A stretch of 64,000 nucleotides of DNA from Escherichia phage vB_Eco_BCPEco_001, in the sequence record PV295200.1; one strand, given 5' to 3'. The notes beneath the pieces are model-generated. The model was not told the DNA's origin, searched no databases, and worked only from the letters and a program-made list of their open reading frames with translations. The position numbers and the translations under genes are program-made. Of this stretch, positions 2,537 to 57,266 are shown piece after piece. Numbering within the stretch: the first letter of the stretch is position 1; every line of letters starts with the position of its first letter.

Positions 2537-3565
2537 ATGTCATCAATACCTTGGATTGATAATGAGTTTGCGTATCGTGCATTAGCTCATTTACCTAAAT
2601 TCACACAAGTAAATAATAGTTCAACTTTTAAATTGCGGTTTAGATGCCCTGTTTGTGGAGATTCAAAAACCGACCAGAATAAAGCTCGTGGATGGTATTA
2701 TGGTGATAATAATGAAGGAAATATTCATTGTTATAACTGTAACTATCATGCACCAATAGGAATATATTTAAAGGAGTTTGAACCTGATTTATATCGTGAG
2801 TATATCTTTGAAATAAGAAAAGAAAAAGGTAAAAGTCGTCCAGTAGAAAAACCTAAAGAACTTCCTAAACATCCTGAGAAGAAAATAATTAAATCTCTTC
2901 CGTCATGTGTTAGATTAGATAAACTGGCGGAAGACCATCCAATTATAAAATACGTAAAAGCTCGTTGTATTCCAAAGGATAAATGGAAATATCTTTGGTT
3001 TACAACTGAATGGCCTAAATTAGTTAATAGCATAGCACCGGGAACATACAAAAAGGAAATTTCTGAGCCTCGTCTTGTTATTCCAATTTATAATGCTAAT
3101 GGAAAAGCTGAGTCTTTTCAAGGACGTGCATTAAAGAAAGATGCTCCTCAAAAATATATCACCATTAAAGCTTATCCTGAGGCAACAAAAATATATGGAG
3201 TCGAACGAGTTAAAGATGGCGATGTATATGTTCTAGAAGGACCTATAGATTCACTTTTTATTGAAAATGGTATAGCTATTACGGGTGGTCAATTAGACCT
3301 AGAAATTGTTCCATTTAAAGATAGACGCGTGTGGGTTTTAGATAATGAACCTCGTCACCCTGACACTATCAAGCGAATGACTAAATTAGTTGATGCAGGA
3401 GAAAGGGTTATGTTTTGGGATAAATCTCCCTGGAAATCAAAAGATGTTAATGATATGATTAGAAAGGAAGGTGCAACCCCTGAACAAATTATGGAATATA
3501 TGAAAAATAATATTGCCCAGGGGTTAATGGCTAAAATGCGGTTATCTAAATATGCCAAGATTTAA
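2537..3565 (+). CDS. 61: DNA primase gp61
   Basis: 342 aa as T4 gp61; Zn-ribbon CPVCGDS...CYNC; TOPRIM-like core. Confidence 0.93.
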   Translation: MSSIPWIDNEFAYRALAHLPKFTQVNNSSTFKLRFRCPVCGDSKTDQNKARGWYYGDNNEGNIHCYNCNYHAPIGIYLKEFEPDLYREYIFEIRKEKGKSRPVEKPKELPKHPEKKIIKSLPSCVRLDKLAEDHPIIKYVKARCIPKDKWKYLWFTTEWPKLVNSIAPGTYKKEISEPRLVIPIYNANGKAESFQGRALKKDAPQKYITIKAYPEATKIYGVERVKDGDVYVLEGPIDSLFIENGIAITGGQLDLEIVPFKDRRVWVLDNEPRHPDTIKRMTKLVDAGERVMFWDKSPWKSKDVNDMIRKEGATPEQIMEYMKNNIAQGLMAKMRLSKYAKI

Positions 3566-3762
3566 ATTAACCCAACTAAAGCAAATGCTAGATCTACGAA
3601 TGTATCAAGAGTAACTACTGGAATATTAACACCATGCGCAATTGCAATTGGTGATAAAATAAAGTTCCAGAGTAAAATTCCTACCATAGCAGAAATAGTA
3701 AAAGCTATACGTTTCTTATTACCTTTGATGGCATTAACAAGTGCCATTAATTTTTGTGCCAT
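3562..3762 (-). CDS. Hypothetical small membrane protein (66 aa, about 2 TM helices), convergent to gene 61
   Basis: Minus-strand ORF with strong SD AAGGAGG 4 nt before ATG; stop overlaps gene 61 stop; extended -10-like TGTGATAAT upstream on minus strand. Confidence 0.4.
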   Translation of the reverse strand: MAQKLMALVNAIKGNKKRIAFTISAMVGILLWNFILSPIAIAHGVNIPVVTLDTFVDLAFALVGLI

Positions 3763-3805
3763 ATGTCCTCCTTTAAATTAATATTATCACAAATTTCATA
3801 AATTT

Positions 3806-3838
3806 GTTTACTTTCTCAGCTTGTTATGGTATTATAAA
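3806..3838 (+). promoter_or_regulatory. T4-type early promoter upstream of 186-aa ORF
   Basis: GTTTAC ... TGGTATTATAAAAT. Confidence 0.65.
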
Positions 3839-3860
3839 ATAAATTGCTGAGGATGATATA

Positions 3861-5199
<1,339 letters not shown>

Positions 5200-5200
<1 letters not shown>

Positions 5201-5226
5201 TTGCTTACATATTCAAATGATATAAT
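5200..5226 (+). promoter_or_regulatory. Candidate MotA-dependent middle promoter upstream of gene 56
   Basis: MotA-box-like TTGCTTA, about 13 bp, TATAAT. Confidence 0.4.
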
Positions 5227-5260
5227 TATTTAACTTATTAATGAATTGAAAGGAAAAATA

Positions 5261-5779
5261 ATGGCTCACTTTAATGAATGCGCTCATTTGATCGAAGGTG
5301 TTGATAAAGCAACTCGTGCATATACTGAGAATATTATGCACAATATTGACCCATTGCAGGTTATGCTTGATATGCAGCGGTCTTTACAGATTCGTTTGGC
5401 TAATGATAAGCCAGAAACAAATCGTCATCCTGATTCACTTGAAACCGCAGGAGAAGTTCTTGCTTGGCTGCGAAACCAAGACGATTATATCGCAGACGAA
5501 ACTCGCGAGCTATATACTTCTCTTGGTGGTATGAGTAATGGTGAAAAAGAAGCTTCTGCTGTATGGAAACCTTGGAAGAAACGTTATTCTGAAATGCAAT
5601 CCAAGAAAATTCAAGATTTATCTCCTGAAGATCAACTTGAAATTAAATTTGAACTAATTGACCAATTTCACTTTTTCATGAATAAATTTATTGCTCTTGG
5701 AATGTCAGCTGAAGAAATCTTTAAACTTTATTATCTGAAAAATGCTGAAAACTTCGCTCGTCAAGATCGAGGTTATTAA
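5261..5779 (+). CDS. 56: dCTPase/dUTPase gp56
   Basis: N-terminus MAHFNECAHLIEG as T4 gp56; RBS AAGGAAA; ORF-track start 5246 is a TTG. Confidence 0.9.
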   Translation: MAHFNECAHLIEGVDKATRAYTENIMHNIDPLQVMLDMQRSLQIRLANDKPETNRHPDSLETAGEVLAWLRNQDDYIADETRELYTSLGGMSNGEKEASAVWKPWKKRYSEMQSKKIQDLSPEDQLEIKFELIDQFHFFMNKFIALGMSAEEIFKLYYLKNAENFARQDRGY

Positions 5780-5824
5780 TAGCTCGTTTAAATAAACGAC
5801 GACTTAAAAGCCGCGAGAATTTAT

Positions 5825-5832
5825 TATAAATA
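5825..5832 (+). promoter_or_regulatory. Late promoter (-10 TATAAATA) for soc
   Basis: Exact TATAAATA about 30 nt upstream of soc ATG. Confidence 0.65.
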
Positions 5833-5862
5833 ATCATGTAATTTAAATAAAAGGAGAATTAC

Positions 5863-6108
5863 ATGGCTAGTACTCGCGGTTATGTTAATATTAAAACATT
5901 TGAGCAAAAATTAGATGGAAATAAGAAAATTGAAGGAAAGGAAATTTCTGTAGCTTTCCCTCTTTATTCTGACGTTCATAAAATTTCTGGCGCTCATTAC
6001 CAGATATTCCCTTCAGAAAAAGCAGCATATTCTACAGTATATGAAGAAAATCAACGTAATGAATGGATTACTGCAAACGAAGATTTGTGGAAAGTAACTG
6101 GTGAATAA
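5863..6108 (+). CDS. soc: Small outer capsid protein Soc
   Basis: 80-81 aa, MASTRGYVNIKTFEQ... as T4 Soc; late promoter TATAAATA upstream. Confidence 0.85.
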   Translation: MASTRGYVNIKTFEQKLDGNKKIEGKEISVAFPLYSDVHKISGAHYQIFPSEKAAYSTVYEENQRNEWITANEDLWKVTGE

Positions 6109-8237: not shown

Positions 8238-8270
8238 GTTTACTTTCCTTTCTAGCAATGATATGATAGC
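8238..8270 (+). promoter_or_regulatory. T4-type early promoter upstream of modB
   Basis: GTTTAC ... TGATATGATAG. Confidence 0.55.
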
Positions 8271-8293
8271 TTCTGAAGTATACGGAGGCTATC

Positions 8294-8917
8294 ATGATTA
8301 TTAATCTTGCAGATGTTGAACAGTTATCTATAAAAGCTGAAAGCGTTGATTTTCAATATGATATGTATAAAAAGGTCTGTGAAAAATTTACTGACTTTGA
8401 GCAGTCAATTCTTTGGCAGTGTATGGAAGCCAAAAAGAATGAAGCTCTTCATCAGCAGTTGAATAAAATCGTTAAAAAGCATTTAACTAAATCACCTTAT
8501 CAGTTATATCGTGGTATATCAAAATCAACAGAAGAACTTATTAAAGATTTACAAGTTGGAGAAGTGTTTTCAACGAATAGAGTAGATTCATTTACTACTA
8601 GTTTGCTCACAGCATGTGGTTTTTCTTATGTTGAGTATTTCACTGAAATAATTTTTCGCTTAAAAACTGATAAAGCTTTTAATTATTCTGACCATATCAG
8701 CGATATTATACTTTCTTCTCCTAATACTGAGTTTAAGTACACGTATGAAGATACTGATGGGCTAGATTCAGAGCGTACTGATAACTTAATGATGATTGTG
8801 CGTGAACAAGAATGGATGATTCCAATTGGAAAGTATAGAATAACTTCTATTTCAAAAGAAAAATTACACGATTCATTTGGAACATTTAAAGTATATGATA
8901 TTGAGGTAGTTGAATGA
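8294..8917 (+). CDS. modB: ADP-ribosyltransferase ModB
   Basis: 207 aa; R (LYRGI), STN and EQEWMIP motifs of R-S-E ADP-ribosyltransferases. Confidence 0.75.
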   Translation: MIINLADVEQLSIKAESVDFQYDMYKKVCEKFTDFEQSILWQCMEAKKNEALHQQLNKIVKKHLTKSPYQLYRGISKSTEELIKDLQVGEVFSTNRVDSFTTSLLTACGFSYVEYFTEIIFRLKTDKAFNYSDHISDIILSSPNTEFKYTYEDTDGLDSERTDNLMMIVREQEWMIPIGKYRITSISKEKLHDSFGTFKVYDIEVVE

Positions 8918-12748: not shown

Positions 12749-13431
12749 TGTTTGATTTTATTATAGATTTTGAAACAATGGGAAGCGGTGAAAAGGCAGC
12801 TGTTATTGATTTAGCTGTAATTGCTTTTGACCCTAATCCAGAAGTCGTTGAAACATTCGATGAATTAGTTTCACGTGGCATTAAAATCAAATTTGATTTA
12901 AAAAGCCAAAAAGGACATCGTCTTTTTACTAAAAGCACTATTGAATGGTGGAAGAACCAATCTCCTGAAGCTCGAAAAAATATTGCACCATCAGATGAAG
13001 ATGTAAGCACTATCGATGGTATTGCAAAATTTAATGATTACATCAATGCACATAATATCGATCCTTGGAAATCTCAAGGCTGGTGCCGTGGAATGTCGTT
13101 TGATTTTCCAATTTTAGTCGATCTCATTCGTGATATTCAACGTCTTAATGGTGTTTCTGAGAATGAGCTTGACACATTTAAGTTAGAACCATGTAAATTC
13201 TGGAATCAGCGTGATATTCGTACCAGAATTGAAGCACTTCTGCTTGTTCGTGATATGACCACGTGTCCTCTTCCAAAAGGAACTTTAGATGGATTCGTTG
13301 CGCATGATTCTATTCATGACTGTGCGAAAGACATCCTGATGATGAAGTATGCTTTGCGATATGCTATGGGTCTTGAAGATGCTCCATCAGAGGAAGATTA
13401 CGATCCTCTGTCTCTTCCAACAAAACGATAA
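12748..13431 (+). CDS. dexA: Exonuclease A (DexA), DnaQ-like 3'-5' exonuclease
   Basis: 227 aa as T4 DexA; DFETMG exo I motif. Confidence 0.85.
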   Translation: MFDFIIDFETMGSGEKAAVIDLAVIAFDPNPEVVETFDELVSRGIKIKFDLKSQKGHRLFTKSTIEWWKNQSPEARKNIAPSDEDVSTIDGIAKFNDYINAHNIDPWKSQGWCRGMSFDFPILVDLIRDIQRLNGVSENELDTFKLEPCKFWNQRDIRTRIEALLLVRDMTTCPLPKGTLDGFVAHDSIHDCAKDILMMKYALRYAMGLEDAPSEEDYDPLSLPTKR

Positions 13432-13437
13432 AAAGTT

Positions 13438-13469
13438 GTTTACTTCCTCGGTTAGTTGTGGTATTATAA
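13438..13469 (+). promoter_or_regulatory. T4-type early promoter
   Basis: GTTTAC ... TGGTATTATAA. Confidence 0.6.
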
Positions 13470-13494
13470 CACCATAGCTACTGAGGATAATAAA

Positions 13495-13995
13495 ATGAAA
13501 ATTTATCGTGTTGAATCATCGTTTAGTATTCTTGATTATGAAGATGCTATAACAATACGTCGAAATCTTTGTGTTCAAATAACGCCGTACAGGAGTATAA
13601 TAGATTCATGGAGCGAAGAGTGGCTATTACACGTAGGTTATGACAGACCTAATTTTATGCATCATAGCGATAATAATAAAAGAATTCCTTTACCACACGA
13701 AGATAAACTATTAGTTAAAAACGCTAATATAGTAATTAATACTAAGTTCAAGAAAGATTATGTTGGAGTAGAATATCATATTCCAGGATGGTTTATAGGT
13801 CTTTATCATTTTGCTTTCGCTAGTGAATATGATATGATGAGATGGTTCACACGAGAAGAGCGGGAAGAATTATCTTCTAAAGGATTTTATCTCGCTGTAT
13901 ACGAAGTTCCTGAAGATGAAGTTATCATTGGTGGGCACCAAGTAATGTTCCGCAAATCGCATGCTGAACTCATAGATTTTATTGAAATGAGATAA
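13495..13995 (+). CDS. Hypothetical protein (166 aa), motB region
   Basis: ATG 13495 with RBS GAGGA after early promoter. Confidence 0.5.
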   Translation: MKIYRVESSFSILDYEDAITIRRNLCVQITPYRSIIDSWSEEWLLHVGYDRPNFMHHSDNNKRIPLPHEDKLLVKNANIVINTKFKKDYVGVEYHIPGWFIGLYHFAFASEYDMMRWFTREEREELSSKGFYLAVYEVPEDEVIIGGHQVMFRKSHAELIDFIEMR

Positions 13996-14545: not shown

Positions 14546-14575
14546 GTTTACAAACTCTTGGGACCAGAGTATAAT
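14546..14575 (+). promoter_or_regulatory. T4-type early promoter; -10 in loop of inverted repeat GGGACCA/TGGTCCC
   Basis: GTTTAC ... AGTATAAT. Confidence 0.6.
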
Positions 14576-14619
14576 GGTCCCGTGGAGTATAAAATCTTTT
14601 TAACAAGTGAGAGATAACT

Positions 14620-23245: not shown

Positions 23246-23276
23246 GTTTACAAGACTGTTCTTCCGTGGTACTATT
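23246..23276 (+). promoter_or_regulatory. T4-type early promoter
   Basis: GTTTAC ... GTGGTACTATTACCCTATCAA. Confidence 0.6.
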
Positions 23277-23303
23277 ACCCTATCAACTACGGAGGAACAG
23301 AAA

Positions 23304-23417
23304 ATGAAAAAGATTATTAAAGCTATATGGAATGTAGTTATAATACTAGTAGTTTTGAGTATATTCCCAATCGTTTTAATGATTGATGTATTAAACGTTT
23401 ACTTTGGATTTATGTGA
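23304..23417 (+). CDS. Tiny membrane protein (37 aa)
   Basis: ATG after RBS GGAGGAACAG; TM helix. Confidence 0.35.
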   Translation: MKKIIKAIWNVVIILVVLSIFPIVLMIDVLNVYFGFM

Positions 23418-43554: not shown

Positions 43555-43941
43555 ATGGAAATCGGCAAAAAATACGAGTTAAATCCACATCGTATTAAAT
43601 CTTTCATTGATATTAGTTCATCAAATGCTAATATGGTCGGCATCATTCAAGAAAATGGTGGTTGGTTTGAAGTTAAATCAATATCAAGTTTAGATGGCTT
43701 TGATTATGTAACCGAAATCATTTGTGCTAATGGTGAAATCTATAATGATGATGGTATGGGTGATGATTATTTTGAACTTAGTGAAGAAGAGTTTTATTGT
43801 TTCCGCGAATATAAAGAACCGACTTCTGAAGAAGATGAAGTCAAAGACAAGGTTTATGGCGTAACAAAAATTCACTGCATTGTAGACGAAAACAATGTAG
43901 ATGAAATCATTGAACTTTTGCGAAAAACTTTCAAAAAGTAG
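43555..43941 (+). CDS. Hypothetical acidic protein (128 aa)
   Basis: ATG 43555 with RBS GAGGAAA. Confidence 0.5.
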   Translation: MEIGKKYELNPHRIKSFIDISSSNANMVGIIQENGGWFEVKSISSLDGFDYVTEIICANGEIYNDDGMGDDYFELSEEEFYCFREYKEPTSEEDEVKDKVYGVTKIHCIVDENNVDEIIELLRKTFKK

Positions 43942-43971
43942 TTTACAACAGGGTAGTAGTGTGATACTATT
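43941..43971 (+). promoter_or_regulatory. T4-type early promoter
   Basis: GTTTAC ... GTGATACTATTACCCTATCAA. Confidence 0.6.
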
Positions 43972-44000
43972 ACCCTATCAAAATTAATGGAGAAAAGAAA

Positions 44001-46253: not shown

Positions 46254-46991
46254 ATGAAAAGCGGAATTTATCAGATTAAAAATACTTTAAACAATAAAGT
46301 ATATGTAGGAAGTGCTAAAGATTTTGAAAAGAGATGGAAGAGGCATTTTAAAGATTTAGAAAAAGGATGCCATTCTTCTATAAAGCTTCAGAGGTCTTTT
46401 AACAAACATGGTAATGTGTTTGAATGTTCTATTTTGGAAGAAATTCCATATGAGAAAGATTTGATTATTGAACGAGAAAATTTTTGGATTAAAGAGCTTA
46501 ATTCTAAAATTAATGGATACAATATTGCTGATGCAACGTTTGGTGATACATGTTCTACGCATCCATTAAAAGAAGAAATTATTAAGAAACGTTCTGAAAC
46601 TGTTAAAGCTAAGATGCTTAAACTTGGACCTGATGGTCGGAAAGCTCTTTACAGTAAACCCGGAAGTAAAAACGGGCGTTGGAATCCAGAAACCCATAAG
46701 TTTTGTAAGTGCGGTGTTCGCATACAAACTTCTGCTTATACTTGTAGTAAATGCAGAAATCGTTCAGGTGAAAATAATTCATTCTTTAATCATAAGCATT
46801 CAGACATAACTAAATCTAAAATATCAGAAAAGATGAAAGGTAAAAAGCCTAGTAATATTAAAAAGATTTCATGTGATGGGGTTATTTTTGATTGTGCAGC
46901 AGATGCAGCTAGACATTTTAAAATTTCGTCTGGATTAGTTACTTATCGTGTAAAATCTGATAAATGGAATTGGTTCTACATAAATGCCTAA
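46254..46991 (+). CDS. I-TevI: Homing endonuclease I-TevI (GIY-YIG)
   Basis: 245 aa; GIY (IYQIKN) ... YVG motif; Zn finger and C-terminal DNA-binding domain. Confidence 0.92.
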   Translation: MKSGIYQIKNTLNNKVYVGSAKDFEKRWKRHFKDLEKGCHSSIKLQRSFNKHGNVFECSILEEIPYEKDLIIERENFWIKELNSKINGYNIADATFGDTCSTHPLKEEIIKKRSETVKAKMLKLGPDGRKALYSKPGSKNGRWNPETHKFCKCGVRIQTSAYTCSKCRNRSGENNSFFNHKHSDITKSKISEKMKGKKPSNIKKISCDGVIFDCAADAARHFKISSGLVTYRVKSDKWNWFYINA

Positions 46992-52089: not shown

Positions 52090-52592
52090 GTACCTTTAAC
52101 TTCCATAAGAATATGGAAATTATGGAAGGTAATGCAAAGATTATGAAGTTCATTGCACGTGATGAGCAGCTTCATCTTAAAGGCACCCAATATATTATTC
52201 GTCAGCTTCAATCCGGTACTGATGGCGATGAATGGGTTAAAATTGCTCAAGAGTGTGAACAAGAAGCAGTTGATATTTTCATGGAAGTTAACCGCCAAGA
52301 AAAAGATTGGGCAGTTCATTTATTTAAAGATGGAGATGTTCCTGGATTAAATACAAATAGCATGTGGAGCTTTATTGATTACTTAACTGTATCTCGTATG
52401 AAGCAGTGTGGTCTTCCATGCCCAATTACCGATGCTCCGGTTAAACATCCATATCCTTGGATTCGTGAATATCTTAATTCTGATAATGTTCAATCTGCGC
52501 CACAAGAAGTAGAATTGTCATCTTACCTTGTTGCACAGATTGATAATGATGTTGATGATAAAGTTATGATGAGTTTTAAAAAATACTTTTAA
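52090..52592 (+). CDS. nrdB: Ribonucleotide reductase small subunit, exon 2
   Basis: Continues (C)TFNFHKNMEIMEGNAKIM...; spliced product about 392 aa. Confidence 0.85.
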
Positions 52593-52619
52593 GGAGTGGG
52601 CCGCAAGGCCCATTTTATT

Positions 52620-52622
<3 letters not shown>
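52591..52622 (+). promoter_or_regulatory. SD - hairpin - AUG arrangement for denA
   Basis: AAGGAG, then GGGCC-GCAA-GGCCC hairpin, then ATTTTATT ATG; folding would bring SD to about 9 nt from AUG. Confidence 0.5.
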
Positions 52623-54210: not shown

Positions 54211-54241
54211 GTTTACAAGTCCCTCATGTTGTGTTATAGTA
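54211..54241 (+). promoter_or_regulatory. T4-type early promoter upstream of alc
   Basis: GTTTAC ... TGTGTTATAGT embedded in inverted repeat TCATGTT/AACATGA. Confidence 0.55.
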
Positions 54242-54271
54242 GTCTTACTGACATAACATGAGGACTTTATG

Positions 54272-57206: not shown

Positions 57207-57237
57207 GTTTACTTTACGGTAGAGTTGTGATATTATA
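57207..57237 (+). promoter_or_regulatory. T4-type early promoter; -10 in loop of inverted repeat GGTAGAG/CTCTACC
   Basis: GTTTAC ... TGTGATATTATAG. Confidence 0.6.
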
Positions 57238-57266
57238 GCTCTACCAAAACAAATGAGGAAATTGAA

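Follow-up and report, generated by a model that had tools for sequence, protein, structure and literature searches.

Within a 64,000-nucleotide stretch of the Escherichia phage vB_Eco_BCPEco_001 (PV295200.1; hereafter the window), five early promoters, those of modB, alc, motB.2, ndd.4 and an open reading frame (ORF) of 186 amino acids (aa), are predicted to mask the ribosome binding site (RBS) of their own gene on RNA arriving from upstream. We consider the best explanation, at a probability of roughly 0.6, to be that T4-type early-promoter cassettes here contain built-in translational insulators. At each site an anti-Shine-Dalgarno (anti-SD) segment, situated in the -35/-10 spacer or, at modB, over the -10 itself, is complementary to the 5' untranslated region (UTR) holding the SD, and often the AUG, of a gene 19-23 nt downstream of the start site. 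RNA from any upstream promoter would carry both arms and fold into a hairpin of 14-26 bp, whose opening before 30S binding would cost about 15-20 kcal/mol and leave the gene essentially untranslated on delayed-early or middle read-through RNA. RNA from the embedded early promoter would begin in the loop, without the 5' arm, and its RBS would be open (1-6 kcal/mol). ModB, Alc, MotB.2, Ndd.4 and the Dam-linked, nuclease-like 186-aa protein would in this way be made from their own early promoters in the first minutes of infection and be insulated from upstream transcription. The whole body of evidence is thermodynamic or comparative, and all transcription start sites (TSSs) given here are predicted (end of the -10 plus 7, ±4).

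Two of the five sites had been picked out in a first-pass annotation, which proposed that inverted repeats pair a region upstream of an internal promoter with the downstream SD, so that only transcripts starting inside the loop would be translatable. The repeats were found where it had placed them, TCTCAGC at 3814-3820 and GCTGAGG at 3846-3852 ahead of the 186-aa ORF, and CCTCGG at 13446-13451 and CTGAGG at 13481-13486, in the same arrangement, 5' of the ORF at 13495, which is motB.2. The internal promoter is at both sites a T4-type early promoter, with the upstream arm in its -35/-10 spacer, and therefore upstream of any plausible start site, and with the SD in the downstream arm. The repeats are real, but the pairing at both sites is longer than had been described (Table 1). 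Folding of read-through and promoter-proximal RNAs gave the predicted difference, with RBS opening costs of 14.8 vs 5.3 kcal/mol for the 186-aa ORF and 16.4 vs 5.9 kcal/mol for motB.2, and the structures did not have a delta G near zero. The proposed interpretation is thus supported computationally, strongly at 13446-13486 and moderately at 3814-3854.

Opening energies at early promoters

Masking was quantified as an opening energy, the free-energy cost of keeping positions -15 to +3 (SD to AUG) single-stranded, for every mapped + strand gene start in a read-through RNA (-120 to +35) and in a proximal RNA beginning at the predicted TSS, or at -20 for promoterless genes. Genes were classed as promoter-proximal when lying 15-60 nt downstream of an early promoter (19 genes in the window). 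Opening in read-through RNA cost at least 12 kcal/mol for 5/19 of these genes vs 2/82 of the others (Fisher p=0.0024), the remaining 14 promoter-proximal genes falling at 2.6-7.4 kcal/mol, the same range as the 82 others (median 5.4 kcal/mol). At the five sites the SD is paired in the predicted read-through folds (14.8-20.2 kcal/mol) and open in RNA from a predicted TSS inside the loop (1.3-5.9 kcal/mol), a contrast that persisted when the length of upstream RNA was varied between 50 and 300 nt and when the TSS was moved by ±4 nt. The two genes without an early promoter that reached 12 kcal/mol were the td-intron ORF I-TevI (start at 46254; 14.8 kcal/mol) and denA, followed in the next tier by the nrdB-intron ORF (51145; 10.6 kcal/mol) and soc (5863; 9.4 kcal/mol). 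As I-TevI, soc and the nrdB-intron ORF are known or expected late-promoter RBS traps, their high scores indicate that the metric recovers known cases. The late-promoter sequence TATAAATA lies inside or beside the nrdB-intron-ORF and soc hairpins and inside none of the five early ones. At denA (start at 52620; 16.4 kcal/mol) the RBS is masked in a different way from the early-promoter traps, its SD GGAG lying at the base of a GC-rich terminator-like hairpin with a UUUU tail (~52590-52622, GUGGGCC-GCAA-GGCCCAU). Gene starts had been transferred from PV368562.1 by ORF-length matching, with three annotated coding sequences left unmapped. The window differs from this best database match by a 1-nt indel near 26.4 kb and lacks ~581 bp of it around 42-44 kb (~42.1-43.8 kb), where the three unmapped coding sequences lie.

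The motB.2 hairpin consists of 8+9 bp (-21 kcal/mol, z -5.2) and, together with its outer helices, reaches -34.1 kcal/mol over 101 nt (z -7.1), a stability found in 0/200 shuffles; its opening energy was likewise reached by 0/200 shuffles of the whole upstream region and 0/200 of the spacer only. The fold at the 186-aa ORF has -10.5 kcal/mol locally (z -3.75) and -18.3 kcal/mol over 101 nt (z -2.05), and 2/200 shuffles reached the observed opening energy in either scheme. On these shuffle counts the pairing at 13446/13481 is clearly non-random and that at 3814/3846 moderately so. RNAs from the predicted +1 are essentially unstructured at both sites (-1.0 and -2.7 kcal/mol). Opening costs at the other sites were 17.1 kcal/mol in read-through vs 2.9 in proximal RNA for modB (1/200 shuffles of the whole upstream region), 16.8 vs 1.3 kcal/mol for ndd.4 (0/200 for the whole upstream region, 0/200 for the spacer only) and 20.2 vs 2.8 kcal/mol for alc. 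At modB, where the arm covers the -10, shuffling the spacer only had, as expected, no effect. In modB and motB.2 the pairing includes the AUG, and the motB.2 SD, GGAU, is followed by a canonical A-rich enhancer, AAUAAAA.

Table 1. Features of the five early-promoter sites, in window coordinates (+ strand)
Feature	Coordinates	Strand	Details
Early promoter of 186-aa ORF	3806..3835	+	-35 GTTTAC 3806-3811; TGn and -10 TATTAT 3830-3835; predicted TSS ~3842
Inner trap helix, 186-aa ORF	3815..3851	+	CUCAGC 3815-3820 (promoter spacer) / GCUGAG 3846-3851 (SD region); repeat of the first-pass annotation
Outer helix, 186-aa ORF	3781..3859	+	8 bp, AUAUUAUC 3781-3788 / GAUGAUAU 3852-3859; predicted to pair the rest of the SD-AUG spacer in read-through RNA
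186-aa ORF	3861..4421	+	PD-(D/E)XK nuclease-like; RBS predicted to be trapped; overlaps start of dam (4421-5200)
Early promoter of modB	8238..8267	+	-10 TATGAT 8262-8267; predicted TSS ~8274
modB trap hairpin	8257..8302	+	5' arm 8257-8275 (-10 and discriminator) / 3' arm 8283-8302 (SD GGAGG and AUG 8294)
Early promoter of motB.2	13438..13467	+	-35 GTTTAC; extended -10 TGGTATTAT ending at 13467, -10 TATTAT 13462-13467; predicted TSS ~13474
motB.2 trap hairpin	13445..13487	+	5' arm 13445-13462 (spacer and TGG), loop = -10, 3' arm 13471-13487 (5' UTR, SD GAGGA); includes second repeat of the first-pass annotation
motB.2 outer helices	13425..13509	+	13436-13441 (-35) / 13493-13498 (AAAUGA, start codon); 13425-13432 (dexA end) / 13502-13509 (motB.2 codons 3-5)
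Early promoter of ndd.4	23246..23275	+	37-aa ORF at 23304
ndd.4 trap hairpin	23256..23300	+	15 bp, CUGUUCUUCCGUGGU (spacer) / ACUACGGAGGAACAG (SD)
Early promoter of alc	54211..54240	+	-10 TATAGT
alc trap hairpin	54217..54267	+	5' arm 54217-54235 (spacer) / 3' arm 54250-54267 (SD GAGGA); AUG 54269

The internal promoters of all five traps fit the early consensus GTTTAC-N17-TAnnnT, and those of the 186-aa ORF and motB.2 show the full early layout of an AT-rich upstream region, a -35 GTTTAC, 17-nt spacing counted from TTTACT and the extended -10 TGGTATTAT. The pattern GTTTAC-N-TAnnAT was found at 17 sites in the window, on the + strand only, against 1.6 expected, and a relaxed -10 gave 20 promoter sites against 2.8 expected, the promoters of alc, dmd and srd escaping the TAnnAT pattern and being found only in the relaxed search. 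Many early promoters of the TACTAT type (22767, 23280, 26771 and 43974, and in the relatives L009, L026, L033 and L036) share a conserved initial transcribed motif, (C)CUAUCAA(C/A), which lies a few bases 3' of the -10 and occurs across genera.

The window comes from a T4-like phage (Tequatrovirus) and its + strand corresponds to the T4 early strand; bases 3000-6000 match Salmonella phage vB_Sen_BCPSen_003 at 100% identity, and many T4-like phages of Escherichia and Shigella at 98-99%. The gene order, read from annotated relatives and from T4 itself, begins with 41, dmd, 61.4, sp, 61.2, 61.1, 61, a 66-aa ORF on the minus strand, the 186-aa ORF, dam, 56 and soc, continues with modB, modA, srd, dda.1 and dda, then dexA, motB.2, motB.1 and motB, then rIIA and rIIB, and later includes ndd.4 and, further on, td, nrdA, nrdB, denA, rnlA and alc.

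Pairing in related phages

Relatives were gathered by tblastn on annotated phages and as protein homologues with their encoding contigs; energies below are given as read-through/proximal. T4 itself has both the motB.2 structure (15.8/5.9 kcal/mol), where its sole difference from the window is in the loop, and the modB structure (15.1/2.9 kcal/mol). Within the T4 group, whose motB.2 arms are CCUCGGU.AGUUGUGGU/ACCAUAGCUACUGAGG, single changes turn G-C into G.U, or G.U into A-U. A divergent motB.2 clade (70-77% protein identity) has the arms UUCUCCUCAUG/CAUGAGGAGAA, an exact 11-bp complement, with opening costs of 16-20 vs 3-4 kcal/mol and z-scores of -3.3 to -5.0. Beside the CCUC/GAGG core that the clades share, two pairs are changed on both sides, G-C to U-A and U-A to G-C. 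This comparison was made by hand and by independent folding, the 5' arms being offset by 2 nt in the MAFFT alignment.

Five genera, Tequatrovirus, Mosigvirus, Dhakavirus, Kanagawavirus and Jiaodavirus, have the predicted trap at their first mod gene, with opening costs of 15-19 vs 2-6 kcal/mol at a protein identity of ~33%. Pairing in this leader joins an unusual TATGAT-like -10 region to the AUCAUG context of the start codon, and the SD lies in an upper stem that varies. In an alignment of eight mod leaders 90.7% of the cells were paired, vs 38-52% when the 3' partners were slid, and the covariation score of 0.296, with three pairs changed on both sides, was reached by 0/500 shuffles. The arms have other sequences elsewhere too: ndd.4 of the Dhakaviruses JS98 and C6 carries CAUCUCCAUUAG/CUAAUGGAGAUG in place of CUGUUCUUCCGUGGU/ACUACGGAGGAACAG (16.8/1.6 kcal/mol), alc of the Karamvirus PG7 carries UCUCCAUUUGGUUGUGU/ACACUAACCAAAUGGAGA (19.3/1.5 kcal/mol) and alc of Klebsiella phage PMBT63 carries AUCCUCAUCAG/CUGAUGAGGAU (13.8/3.9 kcal/mol). 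Shuffling gave 0/150 for the leaders of the divergent-clade motB.2, PhAPEC2 modB, IME08 modB and JS98 ndd.4. That the same arrangement recurs with different arm sequences in other clades and genera argues for selection on the pairing.

Adjacent promoter-proximal genes at the same loci, modA and srd, have no trap (2.5-5.0 kcal/mol), as was found for both genes in IME08, for srd in PKO111, K65_evo2 and probably Entb_45, and for modA in two Mosigviruses. Traps are missing from these neighbours and from 14/19 promoter-proximal genes of the window, so early promoters do not in general carry a CT-rich anti-SD in their spacer; the spacers of those 14 genes are also not CT-rich, which rules out SD complementarity as a by-product of a CT-richness general to T4 early promoters. 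Several annotated starts at these loci look wrong: modB, modA and srd of IME08 (L026, NC_014260) are annotated with ATC starts 3-27 nt 5' of an SD-preceded ATG, and ndd.4 of JS98 (L036) and the mod gene of Entb_45 (L038) from an AUG inside the SD region (AUGGAG...).

Across nine hairpins examined there are 17 G.U pairs, and at four window sites and at PhAPEC2 modB the sense hairpin exceeds its antisense counterpart in stability by 6.6-15.5 kcal/mol, which points to selection on + strand RNA rather than on duplex DNA.

For the 186-aa ORF, homologues of the protein (49-63% identity) were taken with the upstream DNA of their encoding contigs. Two of them, L033 and L035, use a different spacer/SD pair, UCCCAGGUAG/CUACUGGAGA (9.5/2.2 kcal/mol; 4/150 shuffles), and in two others, L029 and L031, a short hairpin spans the stretch between discriminator and SD (8.8/3.1 kcal/mol; 7/150 shuffles). 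Every homologue found sits directly 5' of a Dam-type methylase gene. The family has an invariant PD-(D/E)XK motif (D72, E85 and K87 in FDIVI...IEIKHQ), and four of its six members gave sub-threshold Pfam matches to the DpnII (GATC) restriction endonuclease family (best E 8e-5). An AlphaFold model of the 186-aa protein (pLDDT 80) resembles PD-(D/E)XK nucleases such as VC1899, AF1548, McrC, Bax1, R2 RLE and Card1/Can2, with modest TM scores of 0.3-0.45; a PDB profile search with the family gave no real match. The protein may be a nuclease partner of the phage Dam, in a restriction-modification-like pair or a relic of one. An NCBIfam search gave no names for the trapped genes, and a search of IMG/VR for relatives returned almost none for the 186-aa ORF and only near-identical ones for modB.

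In T4 the early promoter and most of the 186-aa ORF are missing, and the 61-dam gap retains only the last ~30 codons (L002 12127-12435, minus strand). The deletion junction coincides with a direct repeat, ATCACAAA, found at both ends in the window (3786-3793 and ~4337-4344). Between gene 61 and the promoter at 3806 lies the 66-aa ORF (3562-3762, minus strand; phrog_2024), which is antisense to the early strand and probably encodes a small membrane protein; the 61-dam gap of T4 contains homologous sequence, which NC_000866 does not annotate.

Alternative explanations and implications

Several points weigh against translational insulation. Equilibrium folding leaves out co-transcriptional kinetics, ribosomes and S1. 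The 186-aa site is the weakest trap, its opening cost varying between 10 and 15 kcal/mol with context, and the homologous loci keep the trap only partly (9.5, 8.8, 8.8, 6.5 and 4.7 kcal/mol): in addition to the two pairs of homologues above, L027 has 8.8 kcal/mol with a shuffle test that is not significant (31/150), L032 has 6.5 kcal/mol and no recognisable promoter, and L028 is without pairing (4.7/2.6 kcal/mol). A terminator-like + strand hairpin at 3725-3750, followed by the T-run TTTTTGTG, is situated shortly before the promoter at 3806, within the stretch antisense to the 66-aa ORF, and may cut read-through from gene 61 into the 186-aa ORF. One stem-loop of the promoter-early stem-loop (PeSL) type, from RB49/phi1, lowered downstream lacZ like a strong terminator (PMC2839356). 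Equally significant stem-loops that leave the SD free, at 14546, 43941 and 57207, indicate that promoter-overlapping stem-loops have a role beyond RBS trapping, and that other role, attenuation or RNA 3'-end protection, could apply to the trap hairpins too. The arrangement at 3814-3854 is probably functional, with a smaller effect and less evolutionary support than the other sites.

The last two of these points speak for a rival explanation in which the hairpins are attenuators or terminators of upstream transcription and patches of homology for recombination, their overlap with the SD being incidental to short leaders. This we regard as unlikely, even though the T4/PST consensus and the ndd.4/.5 locus have been treated as PeSL (PMC4122927) and the 186-aa cassette is present in some relatives and absent in others (it is absent from T4). 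No U-tract follows the hairpins, whose 3' flank is the A-rich SD-AUG spacer, with only modB borderline, and the short-leader promoters at 1706, 6204 and 18300 (leaders of 19-22 nt) show no SD pairing. The arms have been re-invented between genera with SD inclusion kept in every lineage examined for four genes, which would be unexpected if only a stem-loop or sequence homology were selected, and in T4 the 186-aa cassette was lost between ATCACAAA repeats and not between two PeSLs. An RNA-stability element, with translation control secondary, seems improbable: the hairpin would shield a GGAG or GGAU SD from RegB and follow-up RNase E/G cleavage, or be a barrier to 3' exonucleases. RegB is inhibited by secondary structure, and the modB GGAG and the motB.2 GGAU (followed by AAUAAAA) are in vivo targets (PMC1702504). 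All five trapped SDs (at 3849-3853, 8284-8288, 13483-13487 and 23291-23295 for all but alc) hold one of these two targets, so the hairpins would also shield them from RegB on long transcripts. A paired SD blocks ribosomes too, which makes RegB protection inseparable by sequence from masking of the RBS, but protection does not need the paired AUG seen at modB and motB.2 and is more likely a co-function than a rival.

For the 3814-3854 site alone, it has to be considered that a CT-rich spacer could match a purine-rich SD by chance, the core being just 6 bp, the opening energy context-dependent and the L027 and L028 loci being as described above. The observed value was, however, reached by 2/200 shuffles, the additional 8-bp outer helix pairs the SD-AUG spacer, L033/L035 and L029/L031 pair promoter with SD via different arms, and four much stronger sites of the same architecture lie in the same genome, so that we give chance little credence. 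A function at the DNA level, in which the inverted repeat surrounding the -10 would modulate promoter activity as a cruciform or protein operator, appears very improbable. The repeats do flank the -10, and the hairpins of Dhakavirus ndd.4, the divergent motB.2 clade and L033 contain G.U pairs rarely or not at all and fold with similar stability on either strand; a palindrome or operator is nevertheless disfavoured by the G.U content and sense advantage of the other hairpins, by the length and sequence variability of the arms, which a protein operator would not show, and by a 3' arm that consistently tracks the SD and does not keep a fixed distance from the -10.

Translational insulation would have consequences for the timing of expression. 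De Smit and van Duin reportedly found in 1990 that structure at the RBS lowers translation roughly ten-fold per 1.4 kcal/mol, and the predicted difference of about 10-17 kcal/mol between read-through and proximal RNA far exceeds the range in which such structure lowers translation. Early promoters are shut off within minutes (PMC3014915) and read-through and middle transcription carry on afterwards (PMC2988021), so synthesis of the trapped proteins would be limited to the immediate-early burst. Such confinement fits the trapped set, which comprises ModB, lethal if over-expressed (PMC3014915), Alc, which blocks host transcription (PMC2988021), and the nuclease-like 186-aa protein. If insulation holds, it would add a post-transcriptional layer to the classic T4 distinction of immediate-early and delayed-early genes, and ModB, a toxic ADP-ribosyl/RNAylation enzyme, and Alc, an inhibitor of host transcription, would be among the takeover proteins that could be made only from their own short-lived early promoters, whatever the later build-up of read-through RNA. 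It would also offer a simple alternative for a puzzle concerning RegB: T4 modB RNA is protected from RegB in vitro by a stable structure but is cleaved at its GGAG at 3 min in vivo; the motB.2 GGAU is likewise cleaved in vivo, and cleavage of nascent RNA was proposed (PMC1702504). We infer instead that most early modB RNA may start at the embedded promoter, without the 5' arm.

More tentatively, at slightly less than even odds, the five sites may exemplify a general design rule of T4-type phages, by which an anti-SD in the early-promoter spacer or -10 makes chosen cassettes translationally blind to upstream transcription. The rule would define a class of own-promoter-only, immediate-early-pulse proteins (ModB, Alc, MotB.2, Ndd.4 and the Dam-linked nuclease) and would account for at least part of the PeSL stem-loops via context-independent mobile cassettes. 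Some PeSL stem-loops would then be recast as translational insulators, with a bearing on how cassettes move between T4-like genomes without mis-expression, and promoter and self-masking RBS together would be a compact natural part for phage engineering and synthetic biology.

Comparison with known systems

Like a Rho-independent terminator, each element is a stable intergenic stem-loop at the end of the upstream gene; unlike one, its stem takes in the promoter spacer and the SD of the next gene, and no U-tract follows at four of the five sites. The 3' flanks are AUAAUAAAAUG (motB.2), AAAAUG (ndd.4), UAUAAUG (186-aa ORF) and UAUGAUG (alc), modB being borderline, and this lack of U-tracts speaks against an identity as intrinsic terminators. 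A functional analogue with a sigma70 promoter is the fold-back inhibition of IS10 and IS50, for which Davis, Simons and Kleckner (in 1985) and Krebs and Reznikoff (in 1986) reportedly described external transcripts that pair the transposase RBS and are untranslated, and RNA from the element's own sigma70 promoter that starts 3' of the complementary segment and is translated. That system differs from the present one in belonging to a mobile element, in concerning a single gene and in having no phage temporal programme.

Translational control of the T4 kind, by a hairpin with an internal promoter, operates at e, soc, 49 and I-TevI, and also at I-TevII/III, segB and Aeh1 mobE (PMC3014915; PMC2988022). 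As at the sites described here, the SD and/or AUG of e, soc, 49 and I-TevI lies in a helix on upstream-initiated RNA and a promoter gives RNA without the 5' arm (PMC3014915, PMC2988022). Both features were found at our five sites, with the SD or AUG in a predicted stable helix (14.8-20.2 kcal/mol vs the control median of 5.4) and predicted transcripts that start inside the hairpin without the 5' arm (1.3-5.9 kcal/mol). The late or middle internal promoter and late gene of those systems were not, the promoters here being of the sigma70-type early kind, with their own spacer or -10 as the 5' arm. A review describes the genes under such control as 'all late genes' (PMC2988022). The timing is inverted, expression being delayed until late there and, on our reading, confined to the immediate-early burst here. 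The type of mechanism is therefore already known; in the literature that we could search, its early-promoter form, with its conservation between genera, does not appear to have been recognised.

The closest counterpart in architecture is the PeSL (Arbiol et al. 2010, Comeau et al. 2014), which consists of an early promoter, a stem-loop between -35 and -10 or overlapping the -10, an SD and an ATG (PMC2839356, PMC4122927), with TTTACW-N17-TAYWAT as the T4/PST promoter consensus and the ndd.4/.5 locus as an exchange site (PMC4122927). PeSL stem-loops were read as terminators or attenuators and as recombination substrates, with translation undiscussed (PMC2839356, PMC4122927), and the words 'translation' and 'ribosome binding' are absent from the 2010 paper (PMC2839356). 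Our sites share the AT-rich upstream region, the sigma70-like early promoter, the stem-loop between -35 and -10 or over the -10, and a 3' end formed by the following gene's SD and start codon. Helices of -12 to -24 kcal/mol enclose the -10 at 3806, 13438 and 23246 (also at 14546, 43941 and 57207), and the modB arm begins in the -10. The stems marked in PST/T4 are said to lie just upstream of the promoter, whereas here the 3' arm is the SD-containing leader and inclusion of the SD is conserved. A strong stem-loop overlapping the -10 or TSS was found at 7/17 early promoters of the window; its 3' arm is the SD in four and leaves the SD untouched in three, and alc, recovered via the relaxed -10, adds a fifth SD trap to those four. 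The three with an untouched SD, at 14546-14590 (motB; GGGACC.../...GGUCCC, -19.7 kcal/mol), 43941-43975 (GGGUAGUAG/...UUACCC, -9.9 kcal/mol) and 57207-57245 (GGUAGAGUUGUG/...CUCUACC, -16.3 kcal/mol), enclose the -10 and end at about the predicted TSS. They resemble the classic PeSL, and the window thus holds a general PeSL-type class and, within it, an RBS-trapping subclass.

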